The position numbers were made by a program, and so were the translations under genes. A model generated the notes under the pieces. The model saw only the letters and a list, made by a program, of their open reading frames with translations. It was not told the DNA's origin and ran no database searches. Shown one piece after another: positions 14-18,444 of a stretch of DNA of 20,000 bases. Each line of letters opens with the position of its first letter. Position 1 is the stretch's first letter. Where the stretch lies: the sequence record SRR22947725_1818; one strand, written 5' to 3'.

Positions 14-1030
14 TTACCGTTCGGGCAAGACGATTGGGACCTCGACAAGATTGACAGGGGCGCCGTCACGTGGGGAGTCTTCCCACATGATGATGGCGCC
101 GGGTCCGGGTTGGTACTCCGACGGGAAGTCCGATACATCGACCGCCACTTCGAAGATGCCCCAGGTCCCGTTGCCGCCGGTCGCTGTCGTGAAGCCCTCG
201 GTCATGAGCTCGCCGTCGTTGTCGCCGCTCGTAATGGCGTATCGGACTGTCGCTTCGAACGTGTTCGATTCTCCTCGAATCACCAGCGGGTTGGTGACCT
301 CAGCGCCAGGGGACGGCTGCTCGATCATGATGCTGGCCCGAACCTCCGCGAAACTGTCACGGGTCAGCCCTTCACCGACCACGAACCCGTGCGACAGGAT
401 TGGGTCGACCGCCGTGCCCTCGATGTGGAACTTCACTCGGTCGATTTCGTCGAACTGGGTGATGGTGAAGACGACCTGAGCCAGCCGAATCGTCTCGTCC
501 AGCGAGCCACTCGAGCTCGCGAATTCTGTCGAGAGGTCGACGGTTGCGGTCGCTCCGTCGCGGGCGATTCCGAGCACCTTCGTGCCGGGTGGAATGCTGG
601 TCGTCATTCTGATTGACCGCTCATCGGCGTTCAATCCGTTGAACAGCATCTCCAGGCTGCTGCGGACGGGGACGTCGGCGGCGACCTCACGTGTCCCCGC
701 GCCCAGACGTTCCGGGGAGCCAGCCGAAGGGTTCCGGACAGTCCAGCCCCAGTAGACGTTCGCAGAGGTCGTCGTGGCCGGCAGGGGAGTCGTCGCGGTC
801 GCCTCGGCGGTCGTCGTGGCGGGCAGGAGAGTCGTCGCGGTCGCCTCGGTGGTCGTCGTGGTGTCAATGGTGCTGGTGCTGGTGCTGCTCTCCGGTTCCG
901 CGCTGGGCACCGAAGGCGTCGATTCCGTCCCAACTTCGGCAGCGCCACCACACGAGACACCAAGACACCCCAGCCCGAACGCGACAGCGCCGACGATGAC
1001 GAGACTCTTCTGCGGCCATCTGGCGGGCAT
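14..1030 (-). CDS. Secreted lipoprotein with Thr/Ser-rich linker, GerMN domain and C-terminal Gmad2 Ig-like domain
   Basis: 338 aa. Hydrophobic N-terminus ending in lipobox-like GVSC; Thr-rich stalk; GerMN-like TTSIPPGTKVLGI...ATVDLSTEF...LAQVVFTITQFDEIDRVKFHIEG; Gmad2-like IEQPSPGAEV...IRGESNTFEATV...GTWGIF...EDSPRDG. AGGAGG SD upstream of the ATG. Confidence 0.85.
   Translation of the reverse strand: MPARWPQKSLVIVGAVAFGLGCLGVSCGGAAEVGTESTPSVPSAEPESSTSTSTIDTTTTTEATATTLLPATTTAEATATTPLPATTTSANVYWGWTVRNPSAGSPERLGAGTREVAADVPVRSSLEMLFNGLNADERSIRMTTSIPPGTKVLGIARDGATATVDLSTEFASSSGSLDETIRLAQVVFTITQFDEIDRVKFHIEGTAVDPILSHGFVVGEGLTRDSFAEVRASIMIEQPSPGAEVTNPLVIRGESNTFEATVRYAITSGDNDGELMTEGFTTATGGNGTWGIFEVAVDVSDFPSEYQPGPGAIIMWEDSPRDGAPVNLVEVPIVLPER
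767..861. repeat. 42-bp in-frame tandem repeat (2 full copies plus a partial)
   Basis: 767-808 and 809-850 match at 39/42 nt, then a partial third copy at 851-861. Encodes TEATATTLLPATTT / AEATATTPLPATTT in the lipoprotein linker. Confidence 0.9.
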
Positions 1031-1130: not shown

Positions 1131-2636
1131 TTAGGTGCGCTGGTAGTTCGGGGCTTCCTTGGTAATCGTCACGTCGTGCGGGTGGCTCTCTTGGCGGCCG
1201 GCGGTGGTGACCCGCATCATCTTGGCGCTGCGCAGCTGCGCCAGCGTCGCGGCCCCTGCGTAGCCCATGCCGGAGCGGAGGCCACCGACCAGCTGGTAGG
1301 CAACGTCACCGAGCGGGCCGGAGAACGGGACGCGACCCTCAATCCCTTCGGGCACGAGCTTCTGGCTCGCTGCACCGACTGCACTCTTCGAACTGGAGGA
1401 CTGGCCGGTGGCGTAACGGTCTTGGCTGTCGCCCGTCATCGCGCCCATCGAGCCCATGCCGCGGTAACTCTTGTATCGGCGGCCCTCGAACAGCTCCATC
1501 TCGCCCGGGCTCTCCTCAACTCCTGCAAGCAGGGATCCGAGCATGACCGTTTCAGCACCAGCAGTGATCGCCTTCACGATGTCGCCGGAGAACGTGATGC
1601 CGCCGTCGCCGATGATCGGGATGCCCATCTCCTTGGCGCGTTTTGAGGCGAAGTAGATCGCCGACAGCTGAGGCATTCCCGCGCCGGATACGACACGGGT
1701 CGTACAGATCGAGCCTGCACCCACGCCGACCTTGACCGCATCGGCGCCGGCCTTGGCCAACGCTTCTACACCATCTTCGGTCACCACGTTGCCGGCGGTG
1801 ACGGCAAGTTCAGGCCAGGAACCCTTCACCCGCTCGATGGTCTTGATCACGTTTGCCGAATGCCCGTGCGCCGTGTCGATCGACACCGCATCGACCCCCA
1901 TCGAAACCAACGCGTCGACGCGCTCTTCGACATCGGCGCCTACACCGATTGCCGCAGCGCAGCGGAGACGTCCCTTGCCATCGCGGGAAGCGTTCGGGAA
2001 ATCCAACCGCTTCTGGATGTCCTTCACCGTGATGAGGCCGGCCAGACAACCGACGCCGTCGACGAGCGGCAGCTTCTCGATGCGATGTTCCTGCAACAGC
2101 AACTTTGCCTCATCGAGGGACGTACCGACGGCGGCGGTGACTAAGCGGTCAGAGGTCATGAAGTCGGTCACTGGCCTGTCAAAGTCGGTCCCTTCGCAGA
2201 ACCGGATGTCACGGTTGGTCAGAATCCCCACGAGGTGACCCTCGTCGTCGGTGATCGGCACACCACTGAACTTGAACCGGTGCATCAACGCCTCGGCCTC
2301 ATGCAGCAGCGCAGTCGGTGGGAGCGTGACCGGGTCGGTGATCATGCCCGATTGGCTGCGCTTGACCTTCTGCACTTCAGACGCCTGATCAGCGATCGAC
2401 ATGTTGCGATGGATCACACCGATGCCGCCGTAGCGGGCCATGGCGATGGCCATCCGGCCCTCGGTCACCTTGTCCATCGCTGCGGACACAAGGGGCACGG
2501 CCAGTTCGATGTCGCCGGCGAACGTCGCGGTCGTATCGACCTCGTCGGGCAAGGTTTCGGAAAACCCAGGGATGACGACGACGTCGTCGAACGTCAGCGC
2601 CTCAAATCGGTCGAAGAGATCGTCGTTGATACTCAT
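1131..2636 (-). CDS. guaB: IMP dehydrogenase with CBS pair
   Basis: 501 aa. [26 protein letters not shown] domains ([15 protein letters not shown]), IDTAHGHS, catalytic loop GSICTTR, YRGMGS, flap DRY and PEGIEG, ESHPHDV...EAPNY. SD AGAGGA upstream. Confidence 0.97.
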
Positions 2637-2662: not shown

Positions 2663-3349
2663 TCAGGTCAAGGGGGGAGTGGGCGCTGCTGTTTCCAGTG
2701 TGACAGCACGGTGCAAGTCGTCAATGTCGGTGAAGCGGCGCGAGCACAGGTTCGCCATGACGCCGACGAGGAGGCGGTGCTCGATGGCATGCACCGCAGT
2801 CTCGAATTCTTCGATGGAGCGAGTCGTGTCGATCGGTACTGCCTCGGTGGCGAGCAGTGGGCCGTCGTCGACACCTTCGTCGGGAACGAAGTGAACCATC
2901 ACGCCCGACTCGGTTCGAGTACCCGCAACCGCTTCGTCCCAGGCACGCTCGATCGCGCGCAGCCCAGGCAACTCACCTGGCTGAGCTGGGTGCAGGTTGA
3001 CCACTCGACCGGGAAACCAGCCCAAGAAGCTCATCGTGAGAATTCGCATCCAGCCAGCCAGCACGATGAAGTCGGGATCGAACCCGGCGACCAACTCGGT
3101 GAGCCGGGCGTCGTAGTCCGGCCGGTCTTCACCCGAACGCATGCCAATACGAACAGCGGGTACACCTGCGGCGTCGGCGCGCTGCAGTGCAAACACGTCC
3201 GCCTTGTTTGACACCACCGCAACCACCCGGCCATTGATCCGGCCGTCAGCACACGCGTCGAGGATGGCCTGCAGGTTGGATCCGTTGCCGGACACCATCA
3301 CCACCAACCGCTGTTCGCGAACAGGACGTTCCGGCTGCTCGCCAATCAT
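2663..3349 (-). CDS. purN: Phosphoribosylglycinamide formyltransferase (GAR transformylase)
   Basis: VSGNGSNLQA, LAGWMRIL, NLHP, GVMVHFV..VDDGP. Start reassigned from 3412 to the ATG at 3349, which forms an ATGA overlap with the upstream stop and has GAAAGAG upstream (228 aa). Confidence 0.93.
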   Translation of the reverse strand: MIGEQPERPVREQRLVVMVSGNGSNLQAILDACADGRINGRVVAVVSNKADVFALQRADAAGVPAVRIGMRSGEDRPDYDARLTELVAGFDPDFIVLAGWMRILTMSFLGWFPGRVVNLHPAQPGELPGLRAIERAWDEAVAGTRTESGVMVHFVPDEGVDDGPLLATEAVPIDTTRSIEEFETAVHAIEHRLLVGVMANLCSRRFTDIDDLHRAVTLETAAPTPPLT

Positions 3350-5550
3350 GACAACACCACTCTTTCGTTCGTCGAGCCCGGCGTTCGGTCGGTCAGTTCG
3401 CCGATGACCCACGTGGTCTCGGCGATCGATGCTTGCACTACGGCTGTCTGGTCAGGAGCGCACACGACAACCATGCCGACGCCCATGTTGAGGGTCCGGT
3501 ACAACTCGACGGTGTCCATCTGCGGAGTCAGCTCGCGGACAAGCTGGAAGAGGGGTGGCACGGGCCAGGAACCCAACGTGATGTTTGCATCGACATTGTC
3601 GGGCAGCACCCGCGGCAGGTTCTCGGGGAGTCCGCCGCCCGTGATGTGGGCCAATGCCTTCACGGCGCCCGTCTCGAACGTGGGTGTCAGGAGATCGAGA
3701 TACGAGCGGTGAGGTTCGAGCAGGGTCTCGCCGAGAGGACGGTCGAAGCCGTCGGGCGCCACATCCATCGGGGCCCACTCAAAGATCTTGCGCAACATCG
3801 AATAGCCATTCGTATGCGGCCCACTCGATGCAATGCCGATGAGAACGTCCCCTGCGGCAACATCGTCGCGCGGGAGCAACTCGGACCGCTCGGCAACACC
3901 GATCAGCGTGCCGGCGATATCGAACGAGCCGGGCTGATAGACGCCTGGCATCTCGGCGGTCTCGCCCCCGAGCAATGCACACCCAGCGGCTTTGCACGCG
4001 TCAGCCATCCCGCCGACAACCTCGGCCACCAGGTCGGCGTCGAGGACGCTCGCCGCGATGTAGTCCAGAAAGAACAGCGGTCGGGCCGACTGCACCAGGA
4101 CGTCGTCAATGCAGTGGTTGACGATGTCCATGCCGACGCCGCGGACCATGCCCAAGCGCGCGGCCAACTCGACCTTGGTGCCCACCCCGTCGGTGGAGGC
4201 CACCAGCACCGGCTGATCCATTGCCTGAATACCCGCAGCGGAAAACACGCCGCCGAAGCTGCCGACGCCCTTGAGGACGCCCTCACCGGGCGTGTCGTGA
4301 GTGGCTTCGACGGCGGCCTTCATCTCGTCAACGGCGCGTGTGCCCTCGTCGATGTCGACGCCGGCCGCGGCATAGCTGGCAAGGCCCGCACCGGGCGCCC
4401 GCCACGCAATGTCGCGTCGCACCTGCATGCCGTCGAACGTGATCCTTGCCATCCGGCCGTAGGCCCGATCGCGAGCAGCGCCCAGATCGGTGCCCAGTCC
4501 GGTGACGGCCAAGACGCGACCCCCCGATGTCTTTCCATCGGCGCCGACTCCCGCATCAAAGCGATAGGTGCCCTCCACGTCACCGCGATCAATGATCGAG
4601 TGTCCAGTGCCAGGGTCGTCTGGATAGCCAGGCGATGCTGCAACAACGGTGACCGCTGACTGGGTCGAAATTCGCAGTGGCACACTGCCCACATCGCCTT
4701 GCGTGCAGGCGAGCGCCAATTCCGCGAGGTCGGTCTCGAGGAGAGGCAACACCGTTTGCGCCTCAGGGTCGCCGAAGCGCACGTTGTACTCAATGAGGCG
4801 CGGACCGTCGGGGGTGAGCATGAGTCCCGCGAAGATCACGCCCACGTAGGGGGTGCCCTTGGCAGCGAAGTGGTCGAGTACTGGTTGTACGAACTCGGCG
4901 ATCAGTTCATCACCACTGAACGGAACTGGTGCGGGCGCATAGGCGCCCATGCCGCCGGTGTTGGGTCCGGTGTCGCCCTCACCAATGCGTTTGTGATCCT
5001 GTGCCAAGGGCAGCGCAACAGCAGCCGTGCCGTCACACAGCGCGAGTAGTGAACACTCGGGCCCGCGCAACCGCTCCTCCAGCAGGAATGGTCCGGTCGA
5101 CGCAGCATCGGCAATGGCCTGCCGTGTCTCGGTATCGCTGTCGGGAACTGCAACGCCCTTACCGGCAGCCAAACCATCGAGTTTGACGACGACGGGTGCA
5201 TCCAAATCGGCCCACCAGGCGAGTGCGGCGTCCTCTCGGTCGTTGCCCTCAAACCGGGCAAAGGCCGGGCCGGCAATACCCAGTTCGGTTGCCAGATCGC
5301 GGGCGAATCCCTTTGAGGCTTCCAACTGCGCCAGTTCGGCTGTCGGTCCAAACGACGGGATGCCTCGCTCAGTTGCGAGATCAGTCATGCCCGCAACCAG
5401 CGCGGCTTCCGGGCCGGGAATCACCAGATCGGTGTCATTTGTGCTTGCGTCGTCGAGACCAGAGGCCAACCGAACGTCATGCCCATGCTGTCGACAGGCC
5501 CAGGCAATCGCCTGCTCGCGGCCGCCGCCGCCAATCACCAAGATGCGCAT
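3346..5550 (-). CDS. purD/purM: Bifunctional GAR synthetase / AIR synthetase (PurD-PurM fusion)
   Basis: 734 aa single ORF. Residues ~1-385 are PurD (GGGGRE, GPEAALVAG, LEASK, KLDGLAAGKGV, QDHKRIGEGDTGPNTGGMGAY, EYNVRFGDPE, GGRVL, RRDIA). Residues ~390-734 are PurM (SYAAAGVD, STDGVGTK, PLFFLDY, GGETAEMPG, SSGPHTNGYS, AHITGGG, NMGVGM). Confidence 0.95.
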   Translation of the reverse strand: MRILVIGGGGREQAIAWACRQHGHDVRLASGLDDASTNDTDLVIPGPEAALVAGMTDLATERGIPSFGPTAELAQLEASKGFARDLATELGIAGPAFARFEGNDREDAALAWWADLDAPVVVKLDGLAAGKGVAVPDSDTETRQAIADAASTGPFLLEERLRGPECSLLALCDGTAAVALPLAQDHKRIGEGDTGPNTGGMGAYAPAPVPFSGDELIAEFVQPVLDHFAAKGTPYVGVIFAGLMLTPDGPRLIEYNVRFGDPEAQTVLPLLETDLAELALACTQGDVGSVPLRISTQSAVTVVAASPGYPDDPGTGHSIIDRGDVEGTYRFDAGVGADGKTSGGRVLAVTGLGTDLGAARDRAYGRMARITFDGMQVRRDIAWRAPGAGLASYAAAGVDIDEGTRAVDEMKAAVEATHDTPGEGVLKGVGSFGGVFSAAGIQAMDQPVLVASTDGVGTKVELAARLGMVRGVGMDIVNHCIDDVLVQSARPLFFLDYIAASVLDADLVAEVVGGMADACKAAGCALLGGETAEMPGVYQPGSFDIAGTLIGVAERSELLPRDDVAAGDVLIGIASSGPHTNGYSMLRKIFEWAPMDVAPDGFDRPLGETLLEPHRSYLDLLTPTFETGAVKALAHITGGGLPENLPRVLPDNVDANITLGSWPVPPLFQLVRELTPQMDTVELYRTLNMGVGMVVVCAPDQTAVVQASIAETTWVIGELTDRTPGSTNERVVLS

Positions 5551-7061
5551 CAGGCGATCACTCCCTCGAACGCCAGCTTGGCCTGCGCATCACCGACAGC
5601 GAGCGGGTAGTCGCCCGTGAAGCATGCGTTGCAGTACCCCTCGCCGGACTCGGTGTCGTTGACGGCTCGCATCATCCCTTCCAGCGACAGGAAGGCAAGG
5701 CTGTCGGCACCGATGTGCTCTTGAATCTCAGCGACCGAGAGTCGTGCGGCCATCAGGTCGTTGTCGTGGCCCATGTCGACGCCGAAGTGGCAGGCATGCT
5801 TGATCGGCGGACACGTGATGCGCATATGCACTTCGCTCGCCCCAGCGTCTCGAACCAACTTCACGAGCGGACCGGCGGTCGTGCCACGGACGAGCGAATC
5901 GTCGATCATGATCACCCGCTTCCCCTTGAGGTTTTCGCTCAGCGCATTGAACTTCAGCGCGACACCGCGTTCGCGGATGTCCTGCGTGGGTTCGATGAAC
6001 GTGCGGCCGATGTACCGATTCTTGATCAGCCCATCGTTGAACGGCAGTCCACTCTCCCGTGCGAAGCCGATCGCGGCAGGAATCGACGAGTCGGGTACGG
6101 GAATGACGACATCGGCATCGACCATCGATTCCCTCGCCAGCTCGATACCCAGCCGCTGCCGCGCGTGGTGCACGCTCTTGCCATCCCACACAGAGTCGGG
6201 ACGCGAGAAGTAGACGAACTCGAACGTGCAGCGCGCACCTTTGGGTTGGGGCGCCAGCACCTGGGTCCGCTCGATCTCGCTGCCGCGCAACGTGACCATT
6301 TCGCCGGGTTTGACCTCGTCGATGTCCACGCAGCCCAGCGTTGACAGTGCACAGGTCTCGCTTGCGACGGCATGGCCGCCATGAGGGAGGCGTCCGACGC
6401 TCAGCGGACGGAAACCCCATGGGTCGCGCACGGCAATGACCTGGTCGGCCGCCAGAATGACCAGGGAGTACGCGCCTTTCCAGGCAGGCAACGTTCGCTC
6501 GATCCGCTCCTGCCAAGTCTGCCCGCCAGCAGCAGCGAGCATCAGCGTGAACACCTCGGTATCGCTGGTGGCCGTCAGGCCGAACCCCTTGTTCAGTAAC
6601 TCGTCACGCAATGCCGTCGCGTTGACCAGGTTGCCGTTGTGGGCCACCGACAGCGGCCCGTGCATGGTCTCGACGAGGAACGGCTGGATGTTGCGCTCGG
6701 CATTTGACCCCGTGGTGCTGTAGCGGGTGTGCCCGATGGCGTGGTAGCCGGTCAAGGGTGCGAGCGCCTCGGGCGTGAACACCGTGGAGACGAGACCCGC
6801 TTCTTTATGCAACCGTGACCGTTTGCCGTCACTCACCGCAATACCTGCGGCCTCCTGTCCTCGATGCTGCAACGCAAACAGCCCGAAGAACGCCAGCTGC
6901 GCGACGCCCTCTCCGTGCGGCGTCGACAGACCGAGGACGCCGCACTCGTCGCGTGGCTTGTCGCTGATGCGCACCGGCGTTTCCGTTGTTTGCGTACCCA
7001 GGAGGTGTCGTCCGCGACCCGTGCCGGGTACGCAAACGGATGTGTGGGGTGTTGTGTTCAT
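5550..7061 (-). CDS. purF: Amidophosphoribosyltransferase, Fe-S type with propeptide
   Basis: DECGV (catalytic Cys), LQHRGQEAAGI, GHTRYST, AHNGNL, SDTE, RDPWGFRPL, VPDSS, PRPP loop IDDSLVRGTT, Fe-S cysteines CTFE / CHFGVD / CNACF. Start is either the ATG at 7061 (ATGA overlap with purC) or the GTG at 6974. The stop overlaps the purD start (TGATG). Confidence 0.96.
   Translation of the reverse strand: MNTTPHTSVCVPGTGRGRHLLGTQTTETPVRISDKPRDECGVLGLSTPHGEGVAQLAFFGLFALQHRGQEAAGIAVSDGKRSRLHKEAGLVSTVFTPEALAPLTGYHAIGHTRYSTTGSNAERNIQPFLVETMHGPLSVAHNGNLVNATALRDELLNKGFGLTATSDTEVFTLMLAAAGGQTWQERIERTLPAWKGAYSLVILAADQVIAVRDPWGFRPLSVGRLPHGGHAVASETCALSTLGCVDIDEVKPGEMVTLRGSEIERTQVLAPQPKGARCTFEFVYFSRPDSVWDGKSVHHARQRLGIELARESMVDADVVIPVPDSSIPAAIGFARESGLPFNDGLIKNRYIGRTFIEPTQDIRERGVALKFNALSENLKGKRVIMIDDSLVRGTTAGPLVKLVRDAGASEVHMRITCPPIKHACHFGVDMGHDNDLMAARLSVAEIQEHIGADSLAFLSLEGMMRAVNDTESGEGYCNACFTGDYPLAVGDAQAKLAFEGVIA
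6982..7040. repeat. Inverted repeat / stem-loop at the purC-purF junction
   Basis: Perfect 12-bp arms GTTTGCGTACCC (6988-6999) and GGGTACGCAAAC (7026-7037), extendable by TCC/GGA across a 3-nt bulge. The 26-nt loop contains an inner GTCG-TCCG-CGAC hairpin. Confidence 0.8.
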
Positions 7062-8008
7062 GCAGGAATCTCCAGTGCGCTGACTGCGTCAATGATGCGT
7101 TGTTCGGCGGGATAAGTGGCCCGTTCGAAGGCGAGCCCCGTGAGGCGCTCGTAGGTCTCGATGTAGCGAGCGCTTGTCTGCTCCCACACCTCGGCGGGCA
7201 GCTCAGGGACATCGCCTTCGCCGGTGTAGCCGACGTCGGCCAGGGCCCGGCGGACGACTTCTTTGTCGAGGCTCTGCGGCTCCAGGCCGGCGGCCAACTG
7301 CTCCTCGTACGTCTCGGCGACCCAGTATCGCGAGGAGTCGGGCGTGTGGACCTCGTCGATCAGCATCACGGCGCCAGCTGCGTCGAGGCCGAACTCGTAC
7401 TTCGTGTCGGCCAAAATGAGCCCGCCAGCCGCTGCTCGTTCGCGGCCACGTTCGAACACCGCAAGTGCTGCTGTGCCAACCTGATCCCAGACATCACGAT
7501 CGACGTGGCCCTCGGCAACAACGTCCTGAATGTCGAGTGGAACGTCGTGCTCGCCGAAGTCGCCCTTGGTGGTGGGCGTGATGATGGGCTCGGGCAATGC
7601 GGTGTTCTTGGCTAAACCATCGGGGAACTCATGGCCGTAGATGTTGCGAGCACCCGCCGCGTACTGCGTCCACAACGCCGTGTCGGTGACTCCACTGATG
7701 TGTCCACGGACGACGACCTCAACGCTGAGTGGAGCGGCCTCGCGGGCAACAAGGACGTTCGGATCGGGCAGCGACACGACATGATTCGGCACGATGTCGG
7801 CGGTTTGCTCGAACCACCAGGCCGCCAGTTGGTTCAACACCTGGCCCTTGTAGGGCACCCGGGCGATGATCCGATCGAATGCAGACAACCGGTCCGTGGT
7901 GACGAAGAGCCGCTGCCCTGAGCCGAACGCGTACGAAACGCGCACCTTGCCGAGCCGGCGATCATGGAGTGGTAACTCGATGCTGTCGAACGGCTCGGGG
8001 AGTGTCAC
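7058..8008 (-). CDS. purC: SAICAR synthetase, long type
   Basis: GKVR, TTDRLSAFD, PYKGQVLNQ, EVVVRG, TPTTKG, ADTKYEFG, DEVHTPDSSRYW, SLDKEVVR. Start reassigned from 8083 (inside purQ) to the GTG at 8008, 4 nt after the purQ stop, with AAGGGA upstream (316 aa). Confidence 0.95.
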   Translation of the reverse strand: MTLPEPFDSIELPLHDRRLGKVRVSYAFGSGQRLFVTTDRLSAFDRIIARVPYKGQVLNQLAAWWFEQTADIVPNHVVSLPDPNVLVAREAAPLSVEVVVRGHISGVTDTALWTQYAAGARNIYGHEFPDGLAKNTALPEPIITPTTKGDFGEHDVPLDIQDVVAEGHVDRDVWDQVGTAALAVFERGRERAAAGGLILADTKYEFGLDAAGAVMLIDEVHTPDSSRYWVAETYEEQLAAGLEPQSLDKEVVRRALADVGYTGEGDVPELPAEVWEQTSARYIETYERLTGLAFERATYPAEQRIIDAVSALEIPA

Positions 8009-8012
8009 GTGC

Positions 8013-8756
8013 TCAGAGTCCCTTGGCGTGTCGCACGCCGTTCTCGAACAATCGGAGACCCAAACTGGAGGGTTCACCAGCACCCCGCGTCTTCACAGCA
8101 GCACTGCGGCCGTGGTGCGGATGTTGTCGCGCCACAATGTGATTCTCAGGGTGCGGCATGAGGCCGAGCACCACGCCGCTCGAATCGCAGACGCCAGCGA
8201 TGTCGGCAACTGAGCCGTTGGGATTGGTGCTGCGATATCGCAGCGCAACCTGCCCAGCAGCGGCGAGAGAATCAGGGTCGGGGTGCACGTAACGGCCCTC
8301 GCCATGGGCGATCGGGCAGTGGATCGGGTCCTCGATTCCCGAGGTCCACACCGACTTGCTCTTGACCTCGGTCTCCAACACGACCCACCGGCAGTCGAAA
8401 CGGCCCTGCGCGTTGTGTCCGAGAGCGCCGGGCAACAACTTGGTCCGCGTCAGCACCTGAAAGCCGTTGCAGATGCCGATCAGTGGGCGCCCGCGGGCGA
8501 CAAAGTCGCGTAGCTCATCGCCCAACCCCATCATCAAGTCGAGCGCCAGCATGCGACCAGCGCCCAACGAATCGGCGTGGCTGAATCCTCCGGCGACGAC
8601 GGCCAGTCGGTAGTCGCCCAACAGTCGCGGTCGCTCGACCAACTCGCTCGCCAACACGATCTTTGCGTCAGCGCCTGCTAACTCAAGCGCTTGGCGTACG
8701 TCACCATCACGGTTGGTGCCAGGCCCGGCGATGACGACGGCGGGAACCTTGCTCAT
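8013..8756 (-). CDS. purQ: FGAM synthase glutaminase subunit
   Basis: 247 aa. PGTN, GGFSHAD, GICNGFQ (nucleophile Cys), AHGEG, NPNGS, GLMPHPE (His/Glu of the triad). ATGA overlap with the purL stop. Confidence 0.96.
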   Translation of the reverse strand: MSKVPAVVIAGPGTNRDGDVRQALELAGADAKIVLASELVERPRLLGDYRLAVVAGGFSHADSLGAGRMLALDLMMGLGDELRDFVARGRPLIGICNGFQVLTRTKLLPGALGHNAQGRFDCRWVVLETEVKSKSVWTSGIEDPIHCPIAHGEGRYVHPDPDSLAAAGQVALRYRSTNPNGSVADIAGVCDSSGVVLGLMPHPENHIVARQHPHHGRSAAVKTRGAGEPSSLGLRLFENGVRHAKGL

Positions 8757-11584
8757 GACGTTGCCTGCAGTCCGTTGTGGGTGGCGTAGGCCTCGTGGTT
8801 GAAGGCATCAGCGAGATCGGAGACCAAAATTGGTTCGACTCCGGGCAACGACAACATGCCGGACTCGCTGACCTCGCCGATTTCAAGACACTCGTCGTCC
8901 ATGATCCGCTTGAACGCTGCCACGCTGCGCGGCTCGATCTCGACGACCAAGCGACCCAGCGACTCGCTGAACAGCGACGTCGATAGATCGTCGTGCGGTA
9001 ACACGTCGATGGTGGCGCCGAGGCGCCCGGCCAGGCACATCTCGCCGAGGGCGACGGCGAGTCCGCCTTCGCTCACGTCGTGGCAAGCCGCGACCAGTCC
9101 GGCCTGCATGGCGGCGTGCAGATGGCGATACCGATTGGGAGCATCAGGGTCCGGGGCTGGAGCGGCGCCGGCCACCGGGGGAGCGCCCAGCACCTTGTCG
9201 AGGTGAGATCCGGCGAATTCGGAATCAGTCGACCCCAGGAGCATCAGCACATTGCCGGCCTCGGCCAGGTCAGGGGTAACGCACCGATTGGCGTCAGGTA
9301 CATGTGCGACCGCGGTGATGACGAGCGTCGGCGGCACGGCGTGACGCTCGCCGTCGTTGCCGATGTACTCATTGTTGAGGCTGTCTTTGCCCGATACGAA
9401 CGGAGCGTTGTACATGTAGGCAGCAGCGCAACATCCCTCGACCGCTGCGGCGAGCTCGCCCAGCGTGCTGGGACGACGCGGGTCACCCCACGAGAAGTTG
9501 TCGAGCAGTGCGACCATGTCGGGGTCAGCCCCGACGGCCACCACGTTGCGAATTGCCTCATCAACAACGGCGTAGGCCATCGCCTCAGGGTCGTGGATGC
9601 CGTACCACGGGTTGACGCCGATGCCGATCGCGATGCCGTGCTCAGCCAGCGGTTCGGCCAGGACCACACCATCGGCAGGCCCATCACCAGCTGCGCCGAT
9701 CAGCGGACGCACCACGGTTGACCCCAAGATTTCGTGGTCGTAGCGATGAATCGTGCCTGCCTTGCTCGCGATGTTGGGATGCGACATCAGCGCGATCAGC
9801 GCCGCTTTCGGATCGGCCACCGTTCGGCCGACCGACGGTGATCGATCAGGCTCGGGCAAGACGGCGTTCATCCGTCGCTGTGGACGACCGTCGTGCAAAA
9901 ACGCCGTGTCGATCTCGGCCACCGGCGTGCCGCCTGATCGGACTGTCAGAACGCCATCACCGGTGAACGCGCCGATGTCGGCTACGCCAACACCCACGCG
10001 CTTGCAGCGATTGAGAATGGCACTCACGTTCCGCGATGGCACCGAGATGACCATGCGCTCCTGCGCCTCGCTCAGCCAGACTTCCCAGGGCTCGAGGCCA
10101 GGGTATTTCCGCGGCACGAGATCCAGTTCCACGTCGGCGCCGATGCCCTCCGCCATCTCGCCCACCGCTGAGGACAGACCTCCGGCTCCGCAGTCGGTGA
10201 TCGACGAATACAAGTCCTCCGCACCGATCAATGCGTCGATCAGCAGCTTCTCGATGATCGGATCGCCGATCTGCACACTTGCGCCTGCGACCTCGCCAGT
10301 GCTTGCATCCATTGTCGCCGACGAGAACGTCGCACCTCGAATGCCGTCGCGGCCGGTTGCGCCGCCGAGTACCAGCACCCGATCGCCGGCATGCGGTCCT
10401 TCATGGAGGGGCCGCGCCTTCGACGTACCGATGCAGCCGGCGAAAACCAGCGGATTGGTGGTGTATGTCGGGTCGTACAAGATTGCGCCGGCCACGGTGG
10501 GCAGCCCGATCTTGTTGCCATAGTCAGCAACACCGTCGATCACGCCCTCGCGGATTCGGCGTGGATGCAGCGAGCCGTCCGGGAGGTCGCTCAGCGGCAG
10601 GTCGGCCGGCCCGAAACACAAGATGTCGGTAATCGCGATGGGCTTGTGTGCAATACCCAGCACGTCGCGAATCACGCCGCCGACACCGGTGTTGGCTCCA
10701 CCGAATGGTTCGACTGCAGATGGATGATTGTGCGTCTCGGCTTTGAGCGCAATGGTGATGCCTTTGTGAAACTCGACGATGCCGGCATTGCCGACAAAGG
10801 CAGAACGCACGAACGGTGCATCGATGGTTTCGGTACAGAGCCGCAGTTGCTGCATCAGCGGCTCGATGACCTGCTCGCCCTCGGGCCCGCCCGTCGCGTC
10901 AATCGCGGCCCGGAAGGTTTTGTGCGCGCAGTGTTCGCTCCAGGTCTGGCCCAACGTCTCCAACTCGAGATCTGTGGGATCGCGATCCAATCCAGTGAAG
11001 TGATCACGAATGACGACCATCTCCTCCGGGTCGAGGTAGAGCGCCCGCTCGACGTTGATCTCGGCCAGTCGCGTCTCGTCGGCTCCGCGAATCGGAATGA
11101 TCGCGGCCGTCGAACGAATATCTTCGCCGCCCGGGTGTGCGGGTTCGATCGTGCCCCACGCCCATCGTTCGATGATCGTGTTCGCCACAACGCGCTCGAT
11201 GATGTCGTCGGCCACATCGTCAGCGAGGCCCTCGTCGAAGCGAATGCGTAGACCTGTCGCGGCTGCCTCGATGTCAATACCCAAGGTGCCGCAGGCATGC
11301 CGCACGGCATCGGCGCCGCTGTCGGTGACGCCGGGTTGCAGGGTGATCTCGACCGCATGGCTCGTCGGAAGCTCCCAGTTGCCACGCTGAAGCAGCGGGT
11401 CGACGAGCACACTGTGGAGCCGATCGAGTTGTGCCGAATCGAGGTCTCCGTCGACGAACACGATGTCGGCAATGGCGACCTCGCCGATGTTGCCGAAACC
11501 AAGATCACTCGCGCCTCGCTCGATTGCCGCGGCGCGCGGATCGGCCTCGATCGGATGGAGGGTGAGACGGTGCCTGGGGGCCAC
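8753..11584 (-). CDS. purL: FGAM synthase synthetase subunit with fused N-terminal PurS-like domains
   Basis: QTWSEHCAHK, KAETHNHPSAVEPFGGANTGVGG, GRDGIRGATFSS, DCGAGGLSS, SEAQERM, DNFSWG, VSGKDSLNNE, HDVSEGG, LFSE. Start uncertain: GTG 11584 preferred because TACAGT lies 7 nt upstream (943 aa); ATG 11608 is the alternative. Confidence 0.93.
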   Translation of the reverse strand: MAPRHRLTLHPIEADPRAAAIERGASDLGFGNIGEVAIADIVFVDGDLDSAQLDRLHSVLVDPLLQRGNWELPTSHAVEITLQPGVTDSGADAVRHACGTLGIDIEAAATGLRIRFDEGLADDVADDIIERVVANTIIERWAWGTIEPAHPGGEDIRSTAAIIPIRGADETRLAEINVERALYLDPEEMVVIRDHFTGLDRDPTDLELETLGQTWSEHCAHKTFRAAIDATGGPEGEQVIEPLMQQLRLCTETIDAPFVRSAFVGNAGIVEFHKGITIALKAETHNHPSAVEPFGGANTGVGGVIRDVLGIAHKPIAITDILCFGPADLPLSDLPDGSLHPRRIREGVIDGVADYGNKIGLPTVAGAILYDPTYTTNPLVFAGCIGTSKARPLHEGPHAGDRVLVLGGATGRDGIRGATFSSATMDASTGEVAGASVQIGDPIIEKLLIDALIGAEDLYSSITDCGAGGLSSAVGEMAEGIGADVELDLVPRKYPGLEPWEVWLSEAQERMVISVPSRNVSAILNRCKRVGVGVADIGAFTGDGVLTVRSGGTPVAEIDTAFLHDGRPQRRMNAVLPEPDRSPSVGRTVADPKAALIALMSHPNIASKAGTIHRYDHEILGSTVVRPLIGAAGDGPADGVVLAEPLAEHGIAIGIGVNPWYGIHDPEAMAYAVVDEAIRNVVAVGADPDMVALLDNFSWGDPRRPSTLGELAAAVEGCCAAAYMYNAPFVSGKDSLNNEYIGNDGERHAVPPTLVITAVAHVPDANRCVTPDLAEAGNVLMLLGSTDSEFAGSHLDKVLGAPPVAGAAPAPDPDAPNRYRHLHAAMQAGLVAACHDVSEGGLAVALGEMCLAGRLGATIDVLPHDDLSTSLFSESLGRLVVEIEPRSVAAFKRIMDDECLEIGEVSESGMLSLPGVEPILVSDLADAFNHEAYATHNGLQATS

Positions 11585-11591
11585 CGGCGCG

Positions 11592-11633
11592 ACTGTAGGG
11601 AACCCCATACGACACCAGTGAAATTTGTACAAA
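11592..11633 (-). promoter_or_regulatory. Candidate pur operon promoter (-10 TACAGT) with upstream palindrome TTTGTACAAA
   Basis: Minus-strand TACAGT at 11592-11597 is 7 nt upstream of the GTG, the leaderless geometry typical of actinobacterial TANNNT promoters. A perfect 10-bp AT-rich palindrome lies at 11624-11633. Confidence 0.5.
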
Positions 11634-11771
11634 AGGTTTGCGGGCTCGATGCCGGCGAAGAACCTTCGCACGAGCAGCCAGTTGGCCCGACACTGTCGGG
11701 GCCAAGACGAATGAGCGACACGAAAATGAGCGGAGTGCGGCGTTGGGGTCGATCACTGCGATGATGGAGCG

Positions 11772-13841: not shown

Positions 13842-14812
13842 CTTCGGACTTCAGTCTCGGCCTGCACGAACTCGGTGATCAGTGTTTCGCATATCTGCAG
13901 CCGGACGGCAGTTGGGGCTGGAGCAACGCCGGTCTCGTTGTCGGTGATGGCCAGTCGCTGCTTGTCGACACCCTCTTCGATCTCAATCTCACCCGTGCCA
14001 TGCTCGACGCAATGGCCGCGCACACCGCTGCGGCGCCCGTGGACTCGCTGGTCAATACCCACGCCAACGGTGACCACTGCTACGGCAATAGCGAGGTGCG
14101 CGTCCGATGGTCCGAGGTCGACATCGTGGCATCCGCCGCCTGTGCCGAAGAGATGCCGCACACGCCACCGTCGATGCTGCACGCGCTCAACCAGGCACCG
14201 GGCGAAGTCGGCGATCTGTTTCGCAGCTTCTTCGGCAAATTTGACTTTGACGGCATCGAACTTGAGCTGCCGACAACGACGTTCAGCGGCCGTCATGCCC
14301 TTGATGTGGGGGGACGCCGCGTCGATCTGATCGAGGTGGGCCCGGCGCACACGGACGGCGACGTCTTGGTCCACGTGCCCGATGCCAAGACCGTCTACAC
14401 CGGTGACATTCTCTTCATCGGCGGCACGCCCATCGTGTGGGCTGGACCCCTGAGCAATTGGGTCGCCGCATGCGACCTCATGCTTGAGATGGACGTGGAC
14501 ACCGTGGTGCCTGGCCACGGCCCACTCACCGACAAGGCCGGCGTACGCGAGGTACGCGACTACCTTGCATTTGTCGACACCGAGGCCGCCGGTCGGCAAG
14601 CAGCAGGCATTGACGCCTTTGACGCCGCGCGAGATATTGGCGCGGCCCTTGCGGCCGACGAACGATTCAGCAGCTGGGGTGAGTTCGGACGGATCGCAGT
14701 GAACGTCGACACCGTGTACCGCTCGCTCGACCCACAGCACACCACGCCTGACGTGGTCGAGCAGTTCCGTCGGATGGCTGAACTTGAATCGGCCACGCCC
14801 GGCCACCCGTGA
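13838..14812 (+). CDS. Metallo-beta-lactamase-fold hydrolase (cyclase-like subfamily)
   Basis: 324 aa. AYLQPDGSWGWSNAGLV, LLVDT, metal motif THANGDH, AHTDGD, YTGD, VPGHG. ATGA overlap with the GMC gene. Confidence 0.88.
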   Translation: MTSDFSLGLHELGDQCFAYLQPDGSWGWSNAGLVVGDGQSLLVDTLFDLNLTRAMLDAMAAHTAAAPVDSLVNTHANGDHCYGNSEVRVRWSEVDIVASAACAEEMPHTPPSMLHALNQAPGEVGDLFRSFFGKFDFDGIELELPTTTFSGRHALDVGGRRVDLIEVGPAHTDGDVLVHVPDAKTVYTGDILFIGGTPIVWAGPLSNWVAACDLMLEMDVDTVVPGHGPLTDKAGVREVRDYLAFVDTEAAGRQAAGIDAFDAARDIGAALAADERFSSWGEFGRIAVNVDTVYRSLDPQHTTPDVVEQFRRMAELESATPGHP

Positions 14813-16056
14813 GATCGTCATCGTCGAGCAACGCTGGACGCTTTCACGACGTCGTCATCATCGGTGACGGACCAGCGGGCAGTGCCCTTGCCCATGCCTG
14901 CGTCGTGCGTGGCCTCGACGTCGTCCTCATCGGTGGTGACGCCGATTGGTCGGCGACATACGGAGCGTGGCTTGATGAGGTTGACCGCCTCTCAATCCTG
15001 ACCGGCCTCGACGTCACGGCAGGCACACCGTTCGACGTCTGCGCCTGGACTGATCGGCGCCACGAATTGCGCCGCCCGTACACGCTCCTCGACAACGCCG
15101 CGCTGCGCTCAGCGCTTCGCCGCGATGTGCCGAGGATGACTGCGAAGGTGCTCAGCGTTGCGTCCGGGAGTGACCGTCACCGAGTCATCCTCGACATCGA
15201 CGAGGAGCTCACCGCTCGTCTCGTGATCGATGCCACGGGATGGCCGGCCGCCTTTGCCAACCGAACCCACGGCGACGGGCTGGCGTTCTGGCAAACCGCT
15301 TTCGGTGTCGTGCTCGCTGAACCGCCGGTTGGCGACCTCGGTCAGCCGACACTGATGGACTTCCGTGAGCCCCCACGGACACCGGCTGCACCGCGGAGCG
15401 GGCGCACGCCCGCAACGTTTGCGTACAGCCTGCCGGTGGCCGACGGATGGCTCGTCGAAGAAACAGTGCTTGCGGCGCGACCTGCGGTCGAACCGGTTGC
15501 ACTGGTGCCACTGCTCGCAGCGCGGCTCCACCTGGAACCGGACGACATGCTCGACCGCGCCCTGCGTACAGAGTACGTCCGGATCCCGATGGGCGCATCG
15601 CGTCCTCGACGAGATCAGGCAGTTGTCGCATTCGGCGCAGCCGCGGGCTACGTCAATCCGACGTCCGGTTACTCCGTCGTCCACTCGATGCAGATGGCGC
15701 CAGCGGTCGCCGTGGCGATCGCCGAGTCACTCAGCGCCCGCCCTGAGACTCACGTGGCTGACTCCGCCCTGGTGTGGAACGTCGTGTGGCCGATTGCGCA
15801 TCGCCGGACACGACTGCTGCACGACTACGGCCTTGACATGTTGGGCCAGCTCGACGGAGCCGCCGTCCGAGAGTTCTTCGCAACGTTTTTCGACCTGCCG
15901 CTGCAGAATTGGTCGACATACATGCGCGCTGATTCCTCGCCGACTGACGTGGGCCGTGTGATGGCGCAACTCTTCCGAGCCGCCCCTTGGTCGACCCGGC
16001 GTCGACTGCTCCGCGGTCCTCCTGCTGACTTCGTCCGCCTTGCCCGCCCTTCCTGA
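14809..16056 (+). CDS. Lycopene cyclase family protein (CrtL/CrtY-type flavoprotein)
   Basis: 415 aa. DVVIIGDGPAG, TYGAWLDE, IDATG, QTAFGV, LMDFR, TFAYSLP, LVEET, E..RIPMG, FGAAAGYVNPTSGYSV, FFATFFDLP. GTGA overlap with the MBL gene. Confidence 0.85.
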   Translation: MRSSSSSNAGRFHDVVIIGDGPAGSALAHACVVRGLDVVLIGGDADWSATYGAWLDEVDRLSILTGLDVTAGTPFDVCAWTDRRHELRRPYTLLDNAALRSALRRDVPRMTAKVLSVASGSDRHRVILDIDEELTARLVIDATGWPAAFANRTHGDGLAFWQTAFGVVLAEPPVGDLGQPTLMDFREPPRTPAAPRSGRTPATFAYSLPVADGWLVEETVLAARPAVEPVALVPLLAARLHLEPDDMLDRALRTEYVRIPMGASRPRRDQAVVAFGAAAGYVNPTSGYSVVHSMQMAPAVAVAIAESLSARPETHVADSALVWNVVWPIAHRRTRLLHDYGLDMLGQLDGAAVREFFATFFDLPLQNWSTYMRADSSPTDVGRVMAQLFRAAPWSTRRRLLRGPPADFVRLARPS

Positions 16057-17943: not shown

Positions 17944-18444
17944 ATGAACGACACGCCGATGGAGCTTCCCGACTTCCACATTCCGCACGCCGAGAAGATC
18001 GAATGGATGATCGAGACCAACGGCTGGGCACTCGAACCAGTCGAGGCGCGTCCGGACACCGATCCGCCGACCCCTGCCTACGCGTACTCGATTGGCATGT
18101 CCGACGCGGTTGCCTTCCCCGACGTCGCCGTCTTCGGTCTCACGCCCGTCGCGGCCAACGGCCTCGTCACGCTGGTTGCAGATGCCTGTCGTGGCGGCAC
18201 CGAAATCCCGCTCGGTGTGGAACTCGTCGGGCTCCTCGACAACGAACTGCGCTGCTGCTTCGCGTCGATAGATCTCGGTGCGCATGGCCACCTCTTTTCG
18301 ACGGCGGCTTCGTGGTATCGCGGTGCGCCGTTCTCGATGGTGCAGCTGATCTATCCCGATCGCAACGGCTTCATGCCGTACGAGGCTGGCTACGAGCAGC
18401 GGATGCGGCTCGCCCAACCCGTGGTGGGTGACGTCACAGCCTGA
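17944..18444 (+). CDS. DUF4262 domain protein
   Basis: 166 aa. GWALEPV...AYAYSIGM...PDVAVFGL...QLIYPDRNGFMPYE is the pattern I recognise for DUF4262; starts 10 nt after the kinase stop. Confidence 0.78.
   Translation: MNDTPMELPDFHIPHAEKIEWMIETNGWALEPVEARPDTDPPTPAYAYSIGMSDAVAFPDVAVFGLTPVAANGLVTLVADACRGGTEIPLGVELVGLLDNELRCCFASIDLGAHGHLFSTAASWYRGAPFSMVQLIYPDRNGFMPYEAGYEQRMRLAQPVVGDVTA

Follow-up and report, generated by a model that had tools for sequence, protein, structure and literature searches.

A fused purD-purM gene in a marine actinobacterium, with a probable origin within bacteria

Does a gene that joins purD and purM in one reading frame of a marine actinobacterium share its origin with the fungal Ade5,7 enzyme, or was the fusion made within bacteria? 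The question arises from sequence record SRR22947725_1818, of which we analysed a stretch of 20,000 nucleotides, here called the window; its host is an Ilumatobacter-like member of the Acidimicrobiales, that is, a marine actinobacterium. The original prediction had left three origins side by side: a bacterial relative of the eukaryotic fusion, a transfer and an independent fusion. Our analysis indicates that the gene very probably encodes a bifunctional glycinamide ribonucleotide synthetase (GARS)-aminoimidazole ribonucleotide synthetase (AIRS) that arose by an independent, within-bacteria fusion of neighbouring purD and purM genes, convergent with Ade5,7. Of the three origins only independent fusion found support, and a grouping of the gene with its eukaryotic counterparts was rejected for both halves by approximately unbiased (AU) tests.

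The list of open reading frames (ORFs) and the translation confirmed the uninterrupted PurD-linker-PurM frame of 734 aa that had been predicted at 3346..5550, and showed that it lies on the minus strand; read on the plus strand, the interval is full of stops. The coding sequence (734 aa plus stop) starts with ATG at 5550-5548, ends with TGA at 3348-3346 and has no internal stop. Five Pfam domains follow one another along the protein, namely GARS_N, GARS_A (residues 78-264, E 7.9e-55), GARS_C (299-384), AIRS (443-553) and AIRS_C (566-723), and the three GARS domains each exceed their own Pfam cut-off. The NCBIfam purD model TIGR00877 scored 367.4 bits (cut-off 288) over residues 35-385, and the purM model TIGR00878 scored 327 bits (cut-off 236) over residues 392-721, covering profile positions 2-331 of 332. 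These matches are far above chance and, by profile score, the protein consists of a complete PurD and a complete PurM. The order of GARS followed by AIRS is that of Ade5,7, as had been claimed.

The GARS (PurD, D) half comprises residues 1-381 (4408..5550, minus strand), as delimited by TIGR00877, Foldseek and AlphaFold2 (AF2), and ends at a conserved R-x-D-I motif. It is followed by a linker of 11 residues (382-392; 4375..4407, minus strand), which, in our junction comparison, separates the C-terminal motif of PurD from the N-terminal motif of PurM, Y-x-x-A-G-V. The AIRS (PurM, M) half, residues 393-734 (3349..4374, minus strand), was defined by TIGR00878, a sequence match to PDB entry 5avm and Foldseek. 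The junction string reported at about 4355-4420 is present as residues 378-399 (nucleotides 4354-4419). Its DIAxRA portion had been read as a fungal-like junction; the motif R-x-D-I-(A/G)-x-R turned out to be the ordinary conserved PurD C-terminus and occurs in unfused PurDs as well. By these assignments the N-terminal half would catalyse step 2 of de novo purine synthesis as a GARS and, via the 11-residue linker, the C-terminal half would catalyse step 5 as an AIRS.

An AF2 model based on a 74-row alignment had a mean predicted local distance difference test score (pLDDT) of 94.1 and a predicted template modelling score of 0.62, with two confident domains and a weaker linker; the 10-residue block means were 87-98 in the GARS half and lowest, at 64 and 72, across residues 381-400. 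In Foldseek searches the D half matched PurD structures with target-normalised template modelling scores (TMt) of 0.78-0.85, with 7lvo ranked first. The M half reached 0.84-0.96 to bacterial, human and fungal PurM (0.92-0.96 to 1cli and 5avm) and 0.75-0.88 to Pyrococcus entries. By sequence, 5avm was also the best PDB match of the M half (313 bits), and the D half matched the Cryptococcus GARS with 263 bits, Thermus PurD with 261, E. coli PurD with 239 and B. subtilis PurD with 225. The suggestion that the PurD half is closer to Ade5,7 thus holds against the E. coli and B. subtilis enzymes but not against that of Thermus. The string GMGAYAPAPV, likewise taken as Ade5,7-like, did not bear this out, as the fungal protein reads GMGCYAPTPI and GMGAYAPAPV is found in other, non-fungal fused proteins whose origin is either non-eukaryotic or unassigned.

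In the 74-sequence alignment, the query carries the invariant residue at G7, R11, E12, K123, E158, E165, K187 and E263 of the D half and at G457, K459, D475, E530, T637-G640 and N688 of the M half; the columns of D454, T458 and H635 are nearly invariant (≥90%). The nearest genome (G001) gave one TIGR00877 match above the cut-off and no second purD, and two complete or near-complete genomes (G014, G109) held a single match only. The protein is therefore probably bifunctional as judged from its sequence, and both activities would be kept, given the invariant motifs and because the nearest genomes yielded no further copy of purD or purM.

The fusion is no artefact. All five domains were present in 119 of the 120 closest database proteins listed (74-99% identity), the remaining one being a 557-aa fragment; their sources include Ilumatobacter coccineus, on a contig of 4.83 Mb, and metagenome-assembled genomes (MAGs) of Ilumatobacteraceae. 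The I. coccineus protein already carries the UniRef label 'Multifunctional fusion protein', and the JGI product name is the double enzyme. A continuous frame could in principle also come from an error of assembly or sequencing, or from a two-gene pseudogene in decay, and frame-shifted pieces on one contig do occur in three assemblies (G002, G012, G020) of the genus to which the nearest genome belongs. We give this explanation practically no chance of being right. Among 25 genomes of that genus, the full-length frame was intact in 16; four more were merely cut by contig ends, the three frame-shifted ones have been named and two gave no match. Three families share the fused protein at 50-99% identity and with a linker of constant length; the catalytic motifs are intact and the AF2 model is confident throughout the two domains. 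Support across the junction, which had been called for, came from Logan contigs spanning 3900/3916-4900 of the window, assembled from public runs of seawater or marine metagenomes: three DNA studies and a metatranscriptome library each contributed contigs, which were free of indels and differed by no more than 6 substitutions. The best-matching DNA contigs may include the window's own source, and the contig from the RNA library is no proof of transcription.

How widely the fusion occurs was assessed in genome samples. The order sample comprised 301 Acidimicrobiales genomes, all at least 80% complete, of which 289 gave a match. A one-frame match over both halves was found in at least 24 of the sampled genomes, a lower bound because long-linker fusions were scored as two matches and 404 weaker matches lay outside those listed. 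By family, the fused gene was present in 8/8 genomes of the window's own family (f1, seven genera), 7/7 of f5, 5/7 of f15, the one sampled genome of f72, 1/7 each of f27 and f11, and one genome (G190) of f52. No fusion was found in the 68 genomes of the phylum sample outside the order; the order and phylum denominators include 10 unpublished genomes, all non-fused. Elsewhere, at least 1 of 201 Chloroflexota genomes and 2 of 151 Spirochaetota genomes carried the fusion, the latter counting the genome on which the draw was centred, and the 61 Thermoplasmatota genomes of that sample carried none. The Spirochaetota forms belong to Treponemataceae/Rectinema.

We then compared the arrangement of purD and purM at 60 actinobacterial loci. 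In 19 the genes were fused, in 13 purD lay directly upstream of purM, and in 28 they were dispersed, 6.6-17.7 kb apart on the same strand. The 13 adjacent loci came from Acidimicrobiales families f15, f23, f52, f57, f77, f38 and f78. Because the stop codon of purD lies only 5-92 nt before the PurM N-terminal motif in these pairs, with the two genes in different frames, one small indel would fuse them. Single families hold both the dispersed type and the adjacent or fused, Chloroflexota-like type (f27, with G123 versus G218 and G293, as well as f11, f15 and f52), which implies that horizontal transfer, either between members of the order or from outside it, replaced essential purine genes.

Spacer lengths, measured from the PurD C-terminal R-x-D-I motif to the PurM motif Y-x-x-(A/S/T)-G-V, separated the fusions further. 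The spacer was 11 aa in 14/14 members of the query clade described below, 6, 9, 16, 16, 17, 22, 22 and 38 aa in other fused Acidimicrobiales, 24-27 aa in Chloroflexota and Spirochaetota fusions and 10, 17 and 23 aa in three eukaryotes.

Separate trees were calculated for the two halves. The M tree contained 104 rows (quick IQ-TREE run under LG+C20 with posterior mean site frequencies, PMSF, and the Shimodaira-Hasegawa-like approximate likelihood ratio test, SH-aLRT) and the D tree 105 rows; a second M tree of 54 rows was run under LG+F+G4 with ultrafast bootstrap (UFBoot), and AU tests were performed on 54-row sets in iqtree2 under LG+F+G4 with fast constrained searches. In the 104-row M tree, the query falls into a 14-row, all-fused clade of f1, f72 and f5 (support 100), which lies inside a 42-row clade (support 97, starred) made up of all Acidimicrobiales PurM of the adjacent or fused type, of Chloroflexota, including Anaerolineales and Caldilineaceae, and of the fused proteins from Rectinema/Treponemataceae. 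The dispersed-type Acidimicrobiales PurM group with other Actinomycetota in a separate 45-row clade (support 96), which also holds the eukaryotes (a lichen fungus, sea urchin, butterfly and two nematodes) beside Vibrio and Rhodovibrio. UFBoot values in the 54-row tree were 100 for the query clade, 100 for the Acidimicrobiales purD-purM module with Chloroflexota/Spirochaetota, 94 for the eukaryotes and 96 for the eukaryotes with the two Pseudomonadota, Vibrio and Rhodovibrio. In the D tree, the query clade (support 97) is sister to the adjacent or fused genes of f15, f23, f27 and f11 (99, starred; 99.3 in a further tree), with f52, f57, f77, f38 and f78 together with Caldilineaceae next out, and the dispersed-type Acidimicrobiales again group with other Actinomycetota.

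Both halves thus fall among purD and purM genes that lie side by side, unfused, in other members of the order, and by their sequences they belong to a purD→purM gene-pair lineage of some Acidimicrobiales families, Chloroflexota and Spirochaetota, which stands apart from the dispersed genes of other Actinomycetota. The nesting among ordinary actinobacterial PurD and PurM that had been considered was found at the level of the order only, in a lineage that is not the canonical one. AU tests agree with this picture: all Acidimicrobiales as one clade were rejected (M, p = 0.0018; D, p = 0.0037), as were all Actinomycetota (M, p = 4e-53; D, p = 0.0047) and all fused Acidimicrobiales (M, p = 2e-45; D, p = 2e-43). 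Fused and adjacent forms occurred as sisters with UFBoot 99 in each of three groups (L026+L028, L022+L029 and L033+L034+L040), and parsimony required 6 (M) or 5 (D) changes between the fused and unfused states among 39 Acidimicrobiales rows. The identity of the query was 41-47% (D) and 49-57% (M) to adjacent-type Acidimicrobiales, 43-49% and 42-47% to the dispersed type (L042-L049), 38-44% and 40-47% to other Actinomycetota (L050-L069), and 40% and 37% to the fungal protein; its PurM was 56% identical to that of an Anaerolineales genome and 52% to that of a Caldilineaceae genome.

We propose that a purD gene directly upstream of purM lost its stop codon and the intergenic spacer. For the window's family f1 and two neighbouring Acidimicrobiales families, f72 and f5, this would have happened a single time, in their shared ancestor, and a number of other lineages would have undergone fusions of their own. 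The gene pair, of a lineage that also occurs in Chloroflexota and Spirochaetota, would replace rather than supplement the dispersed genes usual in Actinomycetota.

A single fusion event shared with eukaryotes, with the bacterial gene as relative, donor or recipient of the eukaryotic GARS-AIRS, could draw on the common domain order, on the Cryptococcus GARS as the top PDB match of the D half by both sequence and fold, and on the D tree, where the fungal, urchin and butterfly GARS fall inside the broad 56-row PurD clade of the module (SH-aLRT 92, not starred); grouping the whole Acidimicrobiales module with the eukaryotes was not rejected for D (AU p = 0.19 and 0.17). For M, however, starred branches split the query from the eukaryotes, and the AU test rejected the eukaryotes both with the query clade (p = 3e-8) and with the whole module (p = 5e-8), so that the link is largely refuted for the AIRS half. 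For D, too, the query clade with the eukaryotes was rejected (p = 1.6e-4 with six eukaryotes, 0.0017 with four). The fungal GARS is 47-50% identical to the PurD of Bacillota, Chloroflexota and Nitrospirota, well above its identity to the query, and in the trees the fused forms are surrounded by adjacent, unfused genes from their own order, all of which makes a shared event very improbable. Because of the D-tree clade and the D-half AU values, a narrower link can be considered, in which the eukaryotic GARS would share its PurD subfamily with the bacterial purD→purM pair of the Chloroflexota/Acidimicrobiales type, and a PurM of proteobacterial type would have taken the place of the AIRS half at a later time. 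We regard this as quite unlikely; if true, the eukaryotic enzyme would go back to a bacterium that had the gene pair or an early fused form of it.

Horizontal acquisition of an already fused gene, for instance from Chloroflexota or Spirochaetota, is also unlikely, even though both halves are foreign to canonical Actinomycetota and fused forms are known in Treponemataceae/Rectinema and Chloroflexota. In the M tree the nearest neighbours of the query clade are Chloroflexota and the fused Spirochaetota proteins rather than other Acidimicrobiales (weak, SH-aLRT 85), and it is this placement that keeps such an acquisition under consideration. Against it stand the D tree, with its strongly supported sister group from the same order, the linker of 11 aa rather than 24-27 aa, and the rarity of the fusion in the candidate donor phyla. 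An independent fusion within the order faces several contrary points, namely the M-tree neighbours, the eukaryotic GARS inside the broad D clade and the D-half AU values just given. To these we add that the trees are unrooted, so that fusion and fission (gain and loss) cannot be told apart, and that the PurD half lacks a motif kept in every other aligned PurD, so that full GARS activity is an assumption; we make it because the protein is conserved across many species and no second purD was found in the nearest genome.

This missing segment lies at residues 29-41 (5428..5466, minus strand), where unmatched TIGR00877 positions and an alignment gap mark a derived deletion. The PurD N domain is shorter here by about 25-29 residues, among them the PGN(A/G)G motif; profile positions 24-59 of TIGR00877 are unmatched and, compared with every other PurD in the alignments, the gap spans about 25-37 columns. 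Each of the 18 proteins compared at genus level carries the deletion, as do genomes from three more genera of the family (L011, L012 and L013), and the PGN(A/G)G segment is kept in the other members of the fused clade (L014-L020, P0122). Because the deletion-bearing proteins form one sub-clade within the fused clade (support 96 in M, 99 in D), the deletion post-dates the fusion. The rest of the N domain was modelled confidently by AF2 (pLDDT 95-98).

Among known systems, the fungal Ade5,7 of Cryptococcus neoformans (PDB 7lvo, 7lvp) resembles the query in design, since it too joins an N-terminal GARS to a C-terminal AIRS through a short linker in one polypeptide and unites the same two non-consecutive pathway steps. 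It differs in its independent origin, with the AIRS halves in different parts of the tree, in the linker, which is 23 aa in the fungal protein examined, and in the GARS N domain, part of which is missing from the query. Metazoan GART (GARS-AIRS-GARTfase) shares the GARS-AIRS order, and the purN gene of the window follows directly with an ATGA overlap; in the window, however, the GARTfase is a separate gene, and the AIRS of the animals included in the trees groups with Pseudomonadota. The monofunctional enzymes of Thermus thermophilus (2ip4, 5avm) and E. coli (1gso, 1cli) agree with the query in family, fold and motifs (TMt 0.80-0.96, 239-313 bits), whereas the query is fused and its PurD is shorter by about 25-29 N-domain residues. 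Other prokaryotic fusions, from Rectinema/Treponemataceae, some Chloroflexota and other Acidimicrobiales families, share the architecture and, in both halves, the gene-pair lineage, but have linkers of 6-38 aa; because they are interleaved with unfused adjacent pairs, they are separate events.

A literature search at the level of listings and selected passages turned up no account of a PurD-PurM fusion in bacteria. In the excerpted text of a 2021 Journal of Biological Chemistry (JBC) paper (PMC8449271), one bacterial GARS fusion alone is named, the Francisella GARS-SAICAR synthetase, whose partner enzyme differs from the AIRS of the query, and the generalisation made in that text is the opposite of a bacterial PurD-PurM fusion. 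The architecture is nevertheless already auto-annotated in UniRef, JGI and the ESM Atlas, with clusters assigned to Actinomycetota (132 members), Chloroflexota (62) and Nucleocytoviricota (90). The textbook-style statement is thus to be corrected: the GARS-AIRS architecture arose repeatedly in prokaryotes, is fixed in whole marine Acidimicrobiales families, is sporadic in Chloroflexota and Spirochaetota and is present in giant-virus MAG contigs. The dispersed, adjacent, fused and N-domain-trimmed forms make up a natural series that could serve to test whether and how a cell gains from fusing non-consecutive steps; the gene has no bearing on eukaryote origins in the sense of the original prediction.

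Analogy with characterised enzymes allows some expectations about function. Excerpts of PMC2978367 state that human GART dimerises through AIRS and carries mobile GARS units, and that phosphoribosylamine (PRA) has a half-life of 5 s at 37 °C. By analogy with PurM and human GART, the query protein would dimerise through its AIRS half and carry two GARS units. The fusion, together with the codons overlapping with purF and purN, would fix a 1:1 stoichiometry and keep GARS near the source of its unstable substrate. In the excerpted JBC text, kcat/Km for PRA of the fused Cryptococcus enzyme is about threefold above that of GARS alone; by these kinetics, the fusion may help GARS.

The fused gene, purDM, is part of a minus-strand purine cluster with the order purSL-purQ-purC-purF-purDM-purN, followed by guaB. 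The amidophosphoribosyltransferase gene purF (5550..7061, minus strand; TIGR01134, 501 bits) overlaps the purDM ATG by one base of its TGA stop (TGATG, 5550-5552). Downstream, the GAR formyltransferase gene purN (2663..3349, minus strand; TIGR00639, 182 bits on the longer ORF 2663-3412) was assigned the in-frame ATG at 3349, a start choice that we infer, which overlaps the purDM stop (ATGA, 3346-3349). Because of these overlapping stop and start codons, purF, purDM and purN are probably translationally coupled. The gene order of purDM followed by purN is the domain order of animal GART.

The listed ORFs of purC (7058-8083) and purQ (8013-8756), both on the minus strand and together matched by the profiles NF009251 (390 bits) and NF002957 (180 bits), overlap, which suggests a later purC start. 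Further upstream, purL (8753..11671, minus strand; 972-aa ORF as listed), with PurS, FGAR-AT linker, AIRS and AIRS_C domains, has an N-terminal extension of about 200 residues with a PurS domain at Pfam residues 106-171 and is thus a PurS-PurL fusion. The extension was in frame in 3/3 genomes of the family and was not found in the purL matches of one other Acidimicrobiales and one other actinobacterial genome (2/2). The PurS-PurL fusion resembles an intermediate towards the large PurL.

Several other arrangements of the same genes came up in the searches. Many loci that matched both halves proved to be separate adjacent genes and were set aside: in gut Bacillota (Lachnospiraceae and relatives; L086-L133) purD-purN-purM occur as three adjacent separate genes, and in Pedosphaera and Omnitrophota (G683, G684) the order is purM→purD. 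The reverse order, AIRS-GARS, is fused in a 796-aa protein of a Chlamydiales MAG (P0149). Single GARS-GART-AIRS polypeptides made up 19 of the 150 top representative proteins (for example P0137, P0139 and P0150) and group with eukaryotes in the AIRS tree, and a metagenomic protein of 988 aa (P0132) with the order GARS-AIRS-GART lies among bacterial rows in both trees.

A strongly supported clade of odd composition comprises 52 marine GARS-AIRS fusion proteins (P0193, P0170, P0186, P0198, P0205 and about 47 more), including two IMG/VR giant-virus MAG contigs (L177, L178). An ESM Atlas cluster of the GARS-AIRS architecture is labelled mostly Nucleocytoviricota, and one member of the 52-protein clade is labelled 'archaeon'; the ESM Atlas and IMG/VR point to giant-virus MAGs as a possible source of the clade.

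The remaining features of the window are the IMP dehydrogenase gene guaB downstream of the purine genes (1131..2636, minus strand; TIGR01302, 569 bits) and three genes assigned by Pfam, which are a Germane/Gmad2 lipoprotein-like ORF (14-1030, minus strand), a lycopene cyclase (14809-16056, plus strand) and a DUF4262 protein (17944-18444, plus strand).

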